This document shows positions 1 to 4,248 of a stretch of DNA of 64,000 nucleotides, in pieces; position 1 is the stretch's first letter, and each line of letters opens with the position of its first letter. Made by a program: the position numbers and the translations under genes. This stretch comes from Escherichia coli (GTDB lineage: Bacteria; Pseudomonadota; Gammaproteobacteria; Enterobacterales; Enterobacteriaceae): the NCBI RefSeq assembly GCF_003018235.1, contig NZ_CP027437.1; one strand, 5' to 3'. The notes beneath the pieces were generated by a model, which was not told the origin of the DNA, ran no database searches, and saw only the letters and a list, made by a program, of their open reading frames with translations.

Positions 1-1007
1 AAGTTGCCCGCCAGCGCGCGGTGTTTACCGATCACATTACCATGATGGATGCGGTGAACGCCGAAGAAGTGGTGTGCATTGAAACCGGGCAGGCCTTTCG
101 TGACCATTTCGGCGGCCCTTACGCGGTGATCCACCGGGTTGATATTCACGCCTCGGTGTGGGAAGCGGTACTGACGCATCCGGACGTGGAATATCACACC
201 TCCACCAACGTCGTGGATATTCGCGAGACGGAAGACGATGTCACCGTGTTTGACGATCGCGGCAATAGCTGGACCGGCGATATTCTGATTGGCTGTGACG
301 GCGTGAAGTCAGTGGTGCGCCAGAGCTTATTGGGCGATGCGCCGCGTGTCACCGGACATGTTGTCTACCGTGCGGTTATCGATCGTGCCGATATGCCGGA
401 AGATTTGCGCATTAACGCACCGGTACTGTGGGCGGGGCCACATTGTCACTTGGTGCATTACCCTTTGCGCGGCGGCAAGCAGTATAACCTGGTGGTAACA
501 TTCCACAGCCGCCAGCAGGAAGAGTGGGGCGTGAAGGATGGTAGTAAAGAGGAAGTGCTCTCTTACTTTGAAGGGATTCACCCCCGTCCGCGCCAGATGT
601 TGGATAAACCGACTTCATGGCGACGCTGGTCAACCGCTGACCGTGAACCGGTGGCGAAGTGGGGAACGAAGCGCATAACGCTTGTGGGCGATTCGGCCCA
701 TCCGGTGGCGCAATATATGGCGCAGGGAGCCTGTATGGCGCTGGAAGATGCAGTAACGCTGGGTAAGGCGCTGGCGCAGTGTGAGGGTGATGCGGCGCAG
801 GCCTTTGCGCTGTATGAGTCGGTACGAATTCCGCGCACCGCGCGCATCGTCTGGTCGACCCGTGAAATGGGGCGGGTTTACCACGCCGCAGGGGTAGAAC
901 GCCAGGTACGTAATCTGCTGTGGAAAGGGAAATCGCAGGCAGAATTTTATCGCGGCATGGAGTGGTTGTACGGCTGGAAAGAAGATAACTGTTTGCAACC
1001 ACGCTGA
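1..1007 (+). CDS. FAD-dependent aromatic-ring monooxygenase (salicylate / 3-hydroxybenzoate hydroxylase family), C-terminal portion; 5' end lies outside the window
   Basis: ORF track 21..1007; the same frame stays open back to position 1. Contains the flavoprotein hydroxylase motif VGDSAHPVAQYMAQGACMALEDA (GD-AH...G-G). Not part of the K-12 dusC neighbourhood as I recall it. Confidence 0.75.
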   Translation, partial: VARQRAVFTDHITMMDAVNAEEVVCIETGQAFRDHFGGPYAVIHRVDIHASVWEAVLTHPDVEYHTSTNVVDIRETEDDVTVFDDRGNSWTGDILIGCDGVKSVVRQSLLGDAPRVTGHVVYRAVIDRADMPEDLRINAPVLWAGPHCHLVHYPLRGGKQYNLVVTFHSRQQEEWGVKDGSKEEVLSYFEGIHPRPRQMLDKPTSWRRWSTADREPVAKWGTKRITLVGDSAHPVAQYMAQGACMALEDAVTLGKALAQCEGDAAQAFALYESVRIPRTARIVWSTREMGRVYHAAGVERQVRNLLWKGKSQAEFYRGMEWLYGWKEDNCLQPR

Positions 1008-1034
1008 GCACTTCTTCACCCAATCAGGCGCACG

Positions 1035-1080
1035 GGCGGTCCCCTCGCCCCTTCGGGAGAGGGTTAGGGTGAGGGTAAAA
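1035..1080. repeat. G/C-tract imperfect palindrome (cccctcgcccc-ttc-gggagaggg ... gggtgaggg)
   Basis: Read directly from sequence; resembles small GC-rich intergenic palindromes of enterobacteria. Family assignment not possible without a search. Confidence 0.3.
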
Positions 1081-1125
1081 ATCTTGCCCGAATTAATCAG
1101 TAAGTCAGTTTGTCTGCAAACACAG

Positions 1126-1154
1126 GAGGCGCTAACATAGCGCCTCATTTTTTT
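1126..1154 (+). terminator. Intrinsic terminator-like hairpin: perfect 8-bp stem gaggcgct/agcgcctc, loop aacat, followed by T7
   Basis: Seen in sequence; lies downstream of the monooxygenase gene and only about 12 nt upstream of the dusC start codon. Confidence 0.6.
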
Positions 1155-1166
1155 GCGGGTGATGAT

Positions 1167-2117
1167 ATGCGTGTGTTACTGGCACCGATGGAGGGAGTGC
1201 TTGACTCTCTGGTGCGTGAATTGCTGACCGAAGTTAACGACTACGATCTGTGCATCACCGAGTTCGTCCGCGTGGTGGATCAACTGCTGCCGGTAAAAGT
1301 CTTTCATCGCATTTGCCCTGAGCTACAAAACGCCAGCCGGACACCATCCGGTACGCTGGTGCGCGTGCAGTTGTTGGGTCAGTTCCCACAATGGCTGGCA
1401 GAGAACGCCGCCCGTGCGGTGGAATTAGGTTCCTGGGGCGTGGATCTCAATTGCGGCTGCCCGTCGAAAACGGTCAACGGCAGCGGTGGTGGGGCAACGT
1501 TACTCAAAGATCCTGAACTCATCTACCAGGGTGCAAAAGCGATGCGCGAAGCTGTACCGGCGCATTTGCCCGTCAGCGTGAAAGTGCGTCTGGGCTGGGA
1601 CAGCGGTGAGAAGAAATTTGAAATCGCCGATGCGGTTCAACAGGCTGGTGCTACGGAGCTGGTGGTGCATGGACGGACAAAAGAGCAGGGTTACCGCGCG
1701 GAGCATATTGACTGGCAGGCGATTGGCGAGATTCGCCAGCGGCTGAATATTCCGGTGATTGCCAACGGCGAAATCTGGGACTGGCAGAGCGCGCAACAAT
1801 GCATTGCGATCAGCGGCTGCGACGCAGTGATGATTGGTCGCGGGGCGCTCAATATTCCCAACCTGAGCCGGGTAGTAAAATATAACGAACCGCGAATGCC
1901 GTGGCCGGAGGTGGTTGCTTTGCTGCAAAAATATACCCGTCTGGAAAAGCAGGGCGATACCGGGTTATATCACGTAGCGCGGATTAAACAGTGGTTGAGT
2001 TATTTGCGTAAAGAATACGATGAAGCAACGGAATTATTTCAGCATGTTCGGGTGTTGAATAATTCCCCTGATATTGCAAGGGCTATTCAGGCAATTGATA
2101 TCGATAAGCTGCGATAA
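1167..2117 (+). CDS. dusC: tRNA-dihydrouridine synthase C
   Basis: ORF 1110..2117; start chosen at ATG 1167 ([20 protein letters not shown]...), matching the remembered DusC N-terminus; Dus-family TIM barrel (NCGCP motif). Confidence 0.93.
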
Positions 2118-2219
2118 TAGTGGAATCGCAGTTTATCAGAGACAATGAATCGCTTATTCAGCGTCATCATCTTGTTGCGCTCCTTTCATGAGCTAAGCCA
2201 CATATTGCCACTGGCGCAA

Positions 2220-2420
2220 GGAGCGCGCAGGGGGAGGACAATCGCCTCCTCCCCCTGCCCCCCCGGGCTCTGGCGAACAAAATCGCCGCTGCGCGGTACC
2301 TTCAGCTTATCCCCTTCGGCTACCGGGTCGGGCGCGAGGAAACGTCCTTGTAAGACGCGCCCTCAGCCCACATCCATGTGGGCTGCCCCGGCCTTCGGGG
2401 AACGCTTCAGCGATTTTGAC
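2220..2420. other. GC-rich structured intergenic element with several hairpins (perfect 12-bp stem gcagggggagga/tcctccccctgc at 2226-2256; 10-bp stem cagcccacat/atgtgggctg at about 2354-2377)
   Basis: Seen in sequence. The 107-aa ORF 2145..2468 across it has no convincing RBS and is probably not coding. Confidence 0.3.
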
Positions 2421-2504
2421 GCCACCAACACCGGAGCTGTTTGCAAATCAAGTACACAAAATATCTAGTTCCTGACCTGACAACTTATATGCCATATCTG
2501 ATTT

Positions 2505-2588
2505 TTAAAATATCATCTTAAATACGCCAGTCACCACCAGTAGCCCAATCAGGAAAATAATCAATACAGCCCAGAGTATAATTTTCAT
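2505..2588 (-). CDS. yohP: Small hydrophobic membrane peptide YohP (27 aa, MKIILWAVLIIFLIGLLVVTGVFKMIF)
   Basis: Translated by hand from the minus strand (ATG complement at 2586-2588, TAA complement at 2505-2507); below the 60-aa cutoff of the ORF track; matches the remembered K-12 small protein. Confidence 0.8.
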   Translation of the reverse strand: MKIILWAVLIIFLIGLLVVTGVFKMIF

Positions 2589-2811
2589 TGGCGTTCCTTT
2601 ATTTGTGAGTGCTGAATAAGTATAGGAAAAAACGAAGCCCTTTGCCGTTATCCATAAACGATTAAGATAAATCGGAAGATATCATTCACTTAGTGTATAT
2701 TTTTCTGGATATGTCGTTTTATTGCTACTGATGTATTGCCACGCGGAACTAAAAAATATATCGCAACACACGGTAATCTCCGCGCACCTTTTCTTACCTG
2801 ATTATTCCCCC

Positions 2812-4248
2812 ATGAATCGTGATTCCTTTTATCCAGCCATCGCCTGTTTTCCGCTGTTACTGATGCTGACCGGGTGTGCGCCTATGCATGAAACCCGCCA
2901 GGCGTTAAGCCAGCAAACGCCCGCTGCACAAGTTGACACCGCATTACCCACGGCGCTGAAAAATGGTTGGCCAGACAGCCAATGGTGGCTGGAGTATCAC
3001 GATAATCAACTCACTTCATTAATTAACAATGCACTACAGAACGCACCGGATATGCAGGTGGCTGAACAGCGCATTCAGCTAGCTGAAGCCCAGGCGAAGG
3101 CAATTGCCACTCAGGATGGTCCGCAGATCGACTTTTCTGCGGATATGGAGCGGCAAAAAATGTCGGCAGAAGGGCTAATGGGGCCGTTTGCTCTGAACGA
3201 TCCGGCCGCAGGTACGACCGGTCCGTGGTACACCAACGGAACTTTTGGCTTAACGGCGGGCTGGCATCTCGATATCTGGGGAAAGAATCGGGCGGAGGTT
3301 ACTGCCCGCCTGGGTACGGTTAAAGCACGGGCGGCGGAACGCGAGCAAACCCGCCAATTGCTGGCTGGCAGCGTAGCCCGCCTGTACTGGGAGTGGCAAA
3401 CCCAGGCGGCGTTAAACACGGTCTTGCAGCAAATAGAAAAAGAGCAGAACACCATTATCGCGACCGATCGTCAGCTATATCAGAACGGGATTACTTCTTC
3501 AGTTGAAGGTGTGGAAACCGATATTAATGCCAGCAAAACCCGGCAGCAGCTCAACGATGTCGCGGGGAAAATGAAAATTATTGAGGCACGGTTAAGCGCA
3601 CTTACAAATCACCAGACAAAGTCATTGAAGCTTAAACCGGTCGCGTTGCCGAAAGTGGCAAGCCAGCTTCCTGATGAACTGGGGTACTCCTTACTGGCCC
3701 GGCGGGCAGATTTGCAGGCGGCGCACTGGTACGTTGAGTCATCGCTAAGCACTATTGATGCGGCAAAAGCGGCATTTTATCCTGACATCAACCTGATGGC
3801 CTTCCTGCAACAGGATGCGTTGCACTTAAGCGATCTGTTCCGTCATTCCGCGCAGCAAATGGGCGTTACGGCAGGCCTGACGCTACCCATTTTCGATAGT
3901 GGTCGTCTTAACGCCAATCTCGATATCGCAAAAGCCGAAAGCAACTTGTCTATCGCCAGCTACAACAAAGCGGTGGTTGAAGCGGTGAATGACGTGGCGC
4001 GGGCAGCCAGTCAGGTTCAGACACTGGCGGAGAAAAACCAGCATCAGGCGCAAATTGAGCGCGATGCCTTGCGTGTGGTAGGTCTTGCGCAGGCCCGCTT
4101 TAACGCGGGCATCATTGCTGGTTCCCGCGTCAGCGAAGCCAGAATCCCCGCGCTGCGTGAGCGGGCCAATGGCCTGTTATTGCAAGGGCAGTGGCTGGAT
4201 GCCTCCATTCAACTCACTGGTGCGTTGGGCGGGGGTTACAAACGCTGA
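2812..4248 (+). CDS. mdtQ: Outer-membrane efflux lipoprotein (OMF/NodT family); appears intact here
   Basis: ORF 2722..4248; start chosen at ATG 2812 (MNRDSFYPAIACFPLLLMLTGCAP) giving a lipobox LTGC; uninterrupted 478 codons. Confidence 0.85.
   Translation: MNRDSFYPAIACFPLLLMLTGCAPMHETRQALSQQTPAAQVDTALPTALKNGWPDSQWWLEYHDNQLTSLINNALQNAPDMQVAEQRIQLAEAQAKAIATQDGPQIDFSADMERQKMSAEGLMGPFALNDPAAGTTGPWYTNGTFGLTAGWHLDIWGKNRAEVTARLGTVKARAAEREQTRQLLAGSVARLYWEWQTQAALNTVLQQIEKEQNTIIATDRQLYQNGITSSVEGVETDINASKTRQQLNDVAGKMKIIEARLSALTNHQTKSLKLKPVALPKVASQLPDELGYSLLARRADLQAAHWYVESSLSTIDAAKAAFYPDINLMAFLQQDALHLSDLFRHSAQQMGVTAGLTLPIFDSGRLNANLDIAKAESNLSIASYNKAVVEAVNDVARAASQVQTLAEKNQHQAQIERDALRVVGLAQARFNAGIIAGSRVSEARIPALRERANGLLLQGQWLDASIQLTGALGGGYKR

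Follow-up and report, generated by a model that had tools for sequence, protein, structure and literature searches.

The dusC Locus and Its Upstream Hairpin

The window is the whole stretch of Escherichia coli DNA that was analyzed, 64,000 nucleotides in length. Near its start, the 3' part of mhbM is followed by dusC (Table 1). The TGA stop codon of mhbM lies at 1005-1007, 119 nt upstream of a hairpin, and the gene is co-directional with dusC. In the annotated O157:H7 record, mhbM is the last gene of a co-directional mhbT-gtdA-FAH-maiA-mhbM operon, and the gene of a LysR regulator is divergent. The window is 99.4% identical to O157:H7 over 900-1400. The spacer behind mhbM contains a GC-rich palindrome at approximately 1042-1063 by folding.

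The hairpin, read from the + strand, is GAGGCGCTA-ACA-TAGCGCCTC and is followed by A1147 and a run of seven T's. The T-run is followed by GCGGGTGATGAT, leaving 12 nt between its end and the dusC ATG. Six of the nine pairs in the stem are G-C, and the loop is 3 nt. The predicted folding energy is -15.9 kcal/mol (z = -5.5), and none of 200 shuffled sequences was equally stable. The hairpin was also picked up by a terminator scan of the window. A strict scan for perfect stems of at least 8 bp, with at least 5 G-C pairs and at least 6 T in 8, found 4 distinct sites in the 64-kb window, compared to a mean of 0.03 in 30 first-order Markov resamples. The hairpin is confirmed as real and non-random. 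The first-pass annotation had described a perfect 8-bp GC-rich stem followed by T7; the hairpin, the T7 tract, and the 12-nt gap are confirmed, and the stem is 9 bp rather than 8. An Rfam scan of positions 1-3000 returned no match at the hairpin and two sub-threshold chance matches elsewhere.

Table 1. Features of the mhbM-dusC region, in window coordinates.
Feature	Position	Strand	Basis or remark
mhbM (3-hydroxybenzoate 6-monooxygenase), 3' part	1-1007	+	ORF 21-1007; RefSeq annotation of a 99.4%-identical O157:H7 record
Spacer, 118 bp, O157-type arrangement	1008-1125		In 366 of 5426 E. coli genomes, once each
-35-like element TTGTCT	1110-1115	+	4 of 6 consensus matches; 17 bp upstream of the -10 element
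Hairpin, 9-bp stem with ACA loop; proposed terminator stem-loop for mhb transcripts	1126-1146	+	Scan, fold
-10 element TAACAT, sigma-70	1133-1138	+	Covers the loop, two 5'-arm bases before it, and one 3'-arm base after it
Discriminator AGCGCC, GC-rich, most of the 3' arm	1139-1144	+	Conservation of 3'-arm columns
dusC transcription start, Cappable-seq in O157:H7 EDL933	1145	+	PMC10469882, supplementary file 6; 22 nt before the ATG
T7 tract	1148-1154	+	Proposed U-tract for incoming transcripts; positions +4 to +10 of dusC mRNA
Equivalent of the K-12 RegulonDB/Raghavan 2011 start (MG1655 2230395)	1157	+	10 nt before the ATG; Reg-Seq supplementary files 1 and 11
Shine-Dalgarno-like GGGTGA, weak	1157-1162	+	Sequence; central G of the block 98% conserved
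dusC CDS, tRNA-dihydrouridine(16) synthase	1167-2117	+	ORF and RefSeq; same ATG in 80 orthologues

Distribution of the Hairpin in E. coli

The dusC-proximal part of the query, which includes the hairpin, was found by megablast in 5424 of 5426 complete E. coli genomes. The homology in most E. coli starts at about 1127, given as the first base of the stem. In contrast, mhbM is present in 612 of the 5426 genomes, and in the ~89% that lack it, yohJ is divergent from dusC. The K-12 and Nissle genomes have dusC and yohJ in divergent orientation with 238 bp between them, and the hairpin, the T7 tract, and the 12-nt gap are unchanged. Where K-12 has 126 bp, island strains have the 6.2-kb mhb island, with exact junctions on both sides. 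Judged from these genome comparisons, the hairpin belongs to the core genome and not to the island. The first-pass annotation had placed a terminator between the monooxygenase gene and dusC. The flanking genes agree with RefSeq. For the window the description is reasonable, and it is incomplete because nearly all E. coli carry the hairpin and most lack mhbM. For a "terminator" in a divergent intergenic region, another explanation is needed.

Other mhbM-bearing strains (locus L007, Citrobacter) are without the 118-bp spacer, and their mhbM stop codon lies ~30 nt before the hairpin. Among the complete genomes searched, sequence similar to mhbM (window 500-1007) also occurs at 26 places on plasmids; of the 617 records matching this segment, 219 are only 90-95% identical. 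The plasmid copies and this level of identity suggest several island lineages.

The 126 bp of K-12-type sequence, absent from the window, contains an 11-bp-stem hairpin, AGAGGGATTGC-N8-GCAATCCCTCT, and a 25-codon ORF (~2375-2500 of locus L001). A small RNA or leader peptide ending at the dusC hairpin in K-12 was considered and rejected, as no 3' end is found there and the 25-codon ORF is absent from island strains. The yohJ ORF contains another hairpin, ATGCCTGCCTGTATGCAGGCAT with TTTCATT behind it, located ~82 nt into the ORF (L001 2226-2247, on the minus strand). It coincides with a Term-seq 3' end classed as internal to yohJ (MG1655 ~2230706, + strand; Adams 2021).

Published Mapping of dusC Transcription

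Two published data sets bear on where dusC transcription begins. In Reg-Seq, 160 bp were mutagenized around the assumed dusC start at MG1655 2230395, minus strand. A "-35" footprint was reported at -48 to -42 in 9 of 11 conditions and a "-10" footprint at about -30 to -18 (PMC7567609). These coordinates were converted using the K-12 dusC ATG at 2230385. The "-35" footprint corresponds to 2230443-437, a C followed by TTTAAT. The "-10" footprint corresponds to 2230425-413 and includes TAACAT at 2230419-414, which is the hairpin loop plus one or two flanking bases on each side. Both footprints are 12 nt farther upstream than usual, which places the true K-12 start near 2230407.

The second data set is from Cappable-seq in EDL933, an island-bearing lineage. 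Its table contains the row "dusC 10 16150 22 12" (PMC10469882, supplementary file 6). According to the methods of that study, the columns are the distance from start codon to transcription start in K-12 (RegulonDB), the EDL933 locus number, the EDL933 distance, and the difference. The EDL933 start corresponds to T1145 of the window. This base is exactly 7 nt downstream of TAACAT, and the 3' foot of the stem is two bases away. No second dusC start within 250 bp is listed in this comparison table. The K-12 RegulonDB start, at 10 nt, is off by 12 nt from the EDL933 start and also misfits the Reg-Seq footprints; an additional start, RNA processing, or limited resolution could account for it. With starts mapped at or 3' of the stem foot, dusC mRNA is without the hairpin.

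Published data show that dusC is transcribed from its own promoter, which overlaps the hairpin and gives a 22-nt leader. The first-pass annotation had allowed for read-through, anti-termination, or a promoter overlapping the hairpin. The overlapping promoter is borne out by the footprints and the EDL933 start, and the other two routes are unnecessary. A 5'-end mapping had been proposed as a check; the published starts lie at the stem foot in EDL933 and beyond it in K-12, and neither lies upstream of the hairpin. The Reg-Seq footprints are also reconciled with a dusC start 12 nt upstream of that in RegulonDB.

Genomic SELEX found the dusC/yohJ spacer bound by the sigma-70 holoenzyme. An RpoS SELEX peak that names dusC was set aside, as it sits on the other side of the gene. 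In K-12 Term-seq, neither dusC nor the interval 2230300-2230499 has a 3' end. These data are uninformative on termination, because transcription from upstream does not reach the site in K-12.

The dusC Promoter

In the window, TTGTCT-17-TAACAT has T-12, A-11, and T-7 of a sigma-70 promoter, with the -35 element 17 bp upstream, inside the usual 16-18 bp. TTGTCT aligns column for column with the K-12 TTTAAT in the MAFFT alignment, and the -35 element of the window lineage is supplied by the O157-type spacer. The hexamers match consensus at 8 of 12 positions in the window and 7 of 12 in K-12, as in a weak promoter. A promoter scan requiring at least 9 of 12 matches called none at the dusC site in the window or in K-12, since the dusC promoter is below this threshold. 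The promoter prediction suggested in the first-pass annotation came back empty in that sense, and the 8-of-12 promoter was instead read from the sequence, the alignment, and Reg-Seq.

Between the -10 element and the start lies AGCGCC(TC), a GC-rich discriminator with a near-invariant GCGC core, as in stringent promoters. GC-rich discriminators typify promoters controlled by ppGpp/DksA (PMC4408793). By analogy, the dusC promoter looks growth-rate or stringent-controlled. This suggestion agrees with the listing of dusC among genes under growth-rate-dependent control, alongside ribosomal protein genes (PMC6390033). The 5' end of dusC mRNA is UCAUUUUUUUGCGGGUGAUGAU-AUG, with a U-rich leader of 22 nt.

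Conservation Across Enterobacterales

A sample of 80 DusC loci from across Enterobacterales was compared, and 66 share a block of elements within 60 nt upstream of the ATG. The block is composed of a CTTnnn -35-like element, a 16-18 bp spacer, TAnnAT, a GC block, a T-run, and a weak Shine-Dalgarno sequence. The GC block is 8 nt, [A/T/G][G/T]CGC[C/G]TC. Every one of the 66 loci has a run of 5-8 T's, whether or not it has a hairpin. Loss of the hairpin leaves the T-run invariant, so its role must lie in the promoter or the leader. Its position before a weak Shine-Dalgarno sequence is presumably that of a U-rich translational enhancer, which we take to be the plain reading.

The 59 distinct leaders were aligned using MAFFT. 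The T, A, and final T of TAnnAT, the CG..TC core, three T's of the run, and the ATG are invariant. Position 5 of the -10 element is A in 95% of leaders. The invariant hexamer positions (1, 2, and 6) are the most important ones of a sigma-70 -10 element.

The two arms of the stem differ in conservation. The seven 3'-arm-specific columns (GCGCCTC, 1140-1146) carry 1.81 bits per column vs 1.03 for the seven 5'-arm-specific columns. Two or more changes are observed in the 3'-arm-specific columns of 1 leader vs the 5'-arm-specific columns of 23. The single worst stem pair is broken in up to 25 of the 59 sequences. A covariation test of the nine pairs in these leaders gave 81.2% paired cells vs 80.1% in shuffles, with only 4 compensatory cells. 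Across the family, the 3' arm is conserved as sequence and not as structure. In the 66 loci, the 5' arm drifts without compensation, and the -10 element, discriminator, and T-run are near-invariant. Serratia, Rahnella, and Winslowiella possess the promoter motif without any hairpin, which suggests that the promoter came first and the complementary 5' arm arose later.

Several lineage-specific variants were also observed. The same 5'-arm G-to-A change (GAGGCGCTA to GAGACGCTA or GAGACGTTA) recurs in Citrobacter, Kosakonia, and Kluyvera that lack mhbM (L011, L012, L015, L020, L021, L047, L050, and L057, at ~2960-2975 in each). It could be due to shared ancestry, allele exchange, or a favored spacer variant. 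In Serratia ureilytica (L078, 2120-2160), the discriminator is TGCGGGTC vs TGCGCGTC in other Serratia. It pairs with an upstream ACCCGTA and forms a lineage-specific 7-bp hairpin (-10.4 kcal/mol) before the T-run. In Escherichia albertii (L006, 72-141), the same position is taken by another GC-rich hairpin, CCTCCGGC-tat-GCCGGAGG, with ATATTTATTT behind it. It precedes an identical GCGGGTGATGATATG, and the contig ends 141 nt upstream.

Genomic Context and Proposed Transcription Termination

The anatomy of the site in the window is that of a canonical terminator. A stable GC-rich stem-loop has a U-tract directly 3' of it and a co-directional unit upstream, and the hairpin is the first site of this kind after the mhbM stop codon. 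Based on this layout, the hairpin and U7 would terminate transcripts of the mhb operon.

The strongest indirect argument for termination comes from comparing stem strength with the upstream neighbor. In 20 loci with mhbM co-directional upstream, the stem energy (kcal/mol) ranges from -12.3 to -14.7 with a median of -14.6, and all 20 are at -12 or stronger. In 23 loci with yohJ divergent upstream, it ranges from -0.2 to -14.7 with a median of -7.5, and 10 are at -12 or stronger. Another 23 loci have other upstream neighbors, a range of -2.2 to -14.7, and a median of -5.5, with 2 at -12 or stronger. The stem is intact in 20/20 mhbM-adjacent loci vs 12/46 others. The mhbM-adjacent loci belong to six genera: Escherichia, Citrobacter, Salmonella, Klebsiella, Raoultella, and Pseudocitrobacter. 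The association has a Mann-Whitney p of 3e-8, a value that ignores phylogeny, and the link is confounded by shared ancestry. Within Citrobacter, the stem is perfect in 7/7 mhbM-adjacent loci and carries the stem-breaking G-to-A in 5/5 mhbM-less loci.

There are counter-examples in both directions. Good stems are retained in island-free Escherichia, K. pneumoniae, and R. ornithinolytica, and in island-free E. coli, which has no co-directional gene upstream, the 8-9 bp stem is perfect. Conversely, stems are weak in Enterobacter, Leclercia, and Serratia, where the upstream genes are co-directional. Bidirectional termination was considered as an account of the site and rejected. The minus-strand tail is T-poor and differs between arrangements, and there is no converging gene.

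Another strong terminator in the window, CCCCCTCATAATGAGGGGG followed by CATTTTTTTA (52405-52433), separates a fimbrial gene on the + strand from rcnB, which converges on it. It has a -10-like CATAAT across the loop, a GC-rich 3' arm, and A+T7 (52405-52423) and was used as a negative control. It was rejected as a second terminator/promoter example; between convergent genes no promoter is needed, and the site is a plain terminator. As it mimics the dusC layout, the layout alone is not evidence.

A Proposed Dual-Use Module Upstream of dusC

The best explanation, with a probability of roughly two in three, is that 1126-1154 is a dual-use module, a terminator for the mhb operon and a promoter for dusC. 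As DNA, the module is the core of the dusC promoter, made up of TTGTCT, a 17-bp spacer that contains the 5' arm, TAACAT across the loop, a GC-rich discriminator formed by the 3' arm, and a start at T1145. The dusC mRNA begins at the stem foot without the hairpin and requires neither read-through nor anti-termination, as the published data show. As RNA made from the mhb operon, the same bases would fold into a 9-bp GC-rich hairpin followed by U7 and probably act as an intrinsic terminator. Termination here would insulate dusC, which serves housekeeping tRNA modification, from a 3-hydroxybenzoate-inducible catabolic operon. The promoter half would be older and always constrained, and the 5' arm would stay intact where mhbM is co-directionally upstream and tend to decay elsewhere. 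Initiation at T is uncommon and is counted against this explanation.

One alternative is that the site is only a promoter. The palindrome would be a by-product of promoter sequence and history, mhb transcripts would not be usefully terminated, and dusC would receive read-through on mhb induction. The lack of covariation, the hairpin-free motifs of Serratia, Rahnella, and Winslowiella, and the persistence of the stem in island-free E. coli with nothing to terminate all favor it, as does the absence of a 3' end at the site in K-12. However, the K-12 data are silent either way, as no upstream transcript enters the site. A 9-bp stem with 6 G-C pairs and U7 is near that of a textbook terminator and rare in the window. 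Moreover, the stem is kept next to mhbM in six genera and broken in mhbM-less Citrobacter. This alternative is considered unlikely.

The inverted repeat AGGCGCTA-N3-TAGCGCCT could instead be a putative operator of a dimeric repressor that overlaps the -10 element. Reg-Seq reported a repressor-like region at -43 to -16 (2230438-411) in six conditions, without a matching factor (PMC7567609), and both half-sites are conserved in Escherichia. Across the wider set, however, the half-sites are unequally conserved, with two or more changes in 23 sequences on the left vs 1 on the right. In a weak promoter, mutations that raise expression are expected anyway, either toward consensus or toward a less GC-rich spacer, and no factor was recovered by Reg-Seq mass spectrometry. 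An operator is improbable.

The remaining alternative, that dusC transcripts start upstream of the hairpin and depend on read-through, regulated anti-termination, or a 5'-leader attenuator, draws on the hairpin and T7 lying only 12 nt before the ATG and on the TCAACA-18-CATCAT promoter proposed ~200 nt upstream in K-12 in the genomic-SELEX paper, but it is largely refuted and very improbable, as mutational footprints locate the functional -35 and -10 at the hairpin and its surroundings, starts map to the stem foot (22 nt, EDL933) or beyond (10 nt, K-12) with no other within 250 bp in EDL933, the site has no 3' end in K-12 and no Rfam family, and in island strains the TCAACA-18-CATCAT hexamers point into the LysR gene ~6 kb from dusC. 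In an attenuator or riboswitch, transcription starts upstream of the hairpin; the mapped dusC starts lie at its foot or beyond, which contradicts this reading.

Returning to the dual-use module, its history and consequences can be taken further, although this extension is quite unlikely as a whole. The terminator would have been built on an older, stringent-type dusC promoter. The GC block and T-run would have been co-opted as 3' arm and U-tract, and the complementary 5' arm would have evolved in the spacer once mhb lay upstream. The T-run might also make initiation UTP-sensitive via slippage. Release of the mhb transcript would take place at +4 to +10 of the dusC promoter, so polymerase could re-initiate at dusC on the DNA or occlude the promoter. 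If true, expression of a tRNA-modification gene would be tied mechanically, through re-initiation or occlusion, to induction of a catabolic operon.

Relation to Known Systems

Like E. coli intrinsic terminators, the dusC site has a GC-rich stem-loop and a U-tract after the last gene of an operon, and both -15.9 kcal/mol and U7 are typical. Unlike them, the loop and 3' arm of the dusC hairpin encode the -10 element and discriminator of the next gene. The 3' arm is also conserved as sequence and not by pairing, and termination at this site is predicted from sequence.

An overlap of the frd terminator with the ampC attenuator in E. coli was reportedly described by Grundstrom and Jaurin in 1982. 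In both cases, one hairpin serves two adjacent transcription units across a very short intergenic space. The ampC promoter, however, is upstream of the hairpin, which leads to attenuation, whereas dusC starts at the 3' foot and its mRNA escapes the hairpin.

Stringent sigma-70 promoters, e.g., rrn P1 and rplY, share with dusC the sub-consensus -35 and -10 elements and a GC block between the -10 element and the start (PMC4408793). They also share a role in the translation apparatus, and dusC expression is reported to be growth-rate-dependent (PMC6390033). The dusC promoter differs in its 17-bp spacer and in its initiating T, behind which lies a long T-run.

Reiterative initiation is favored by homopolymeric tracts, 3 nt or longer, in the vicinity of +1 (PMC8812562, PMC12709180). 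The dusC promoter may resemble the reiterative promoters of pyrBI, codBA, and upp in this respect, with T7 beginning at +4 of the transcript. It differs from them in that the tract is from +4 and not +1 to +3, and dusC is not a gene of pyrimidine metabolism. By this analogy, slippage at the dusC T-tract is possible.

The site is best read as an overlap of terminator and promoter, compact and built of ordinary parts. It is a new example with a small evolutionary twist, and current understanding is not overturned. A textbook terminator hairpin directly before a start codon does not equal attenuation or read-through, as the same bases can be the next promoter. The comparative signature of a fixed 3' arm and T-run, with a 5' arm that is free unless a co-directional gene is upstream, could flag other terminator/promoter overlaps. 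The site would also represent a natural 45-bp insulator-plus-promoter module.

Other Features of the Region

The gap between dusC and mdtQ (2145-2720) is long, GC-rich, and repeat-like. It contains a sub-threshold Rfam match to TwoAYGGAY (E = 0.51) that is probably due to chance. The gene for the small membrane protein YohP lies in this gap on the minus strand at ~2505-2588, a position taken by offset from the O157 annotation. Downstream, the mdtQ frame is intact in the window (2722-4248, 508 codons from an upstream TTG); in the K-12 annotation, mdtQ is a frameshifted pseudogene.
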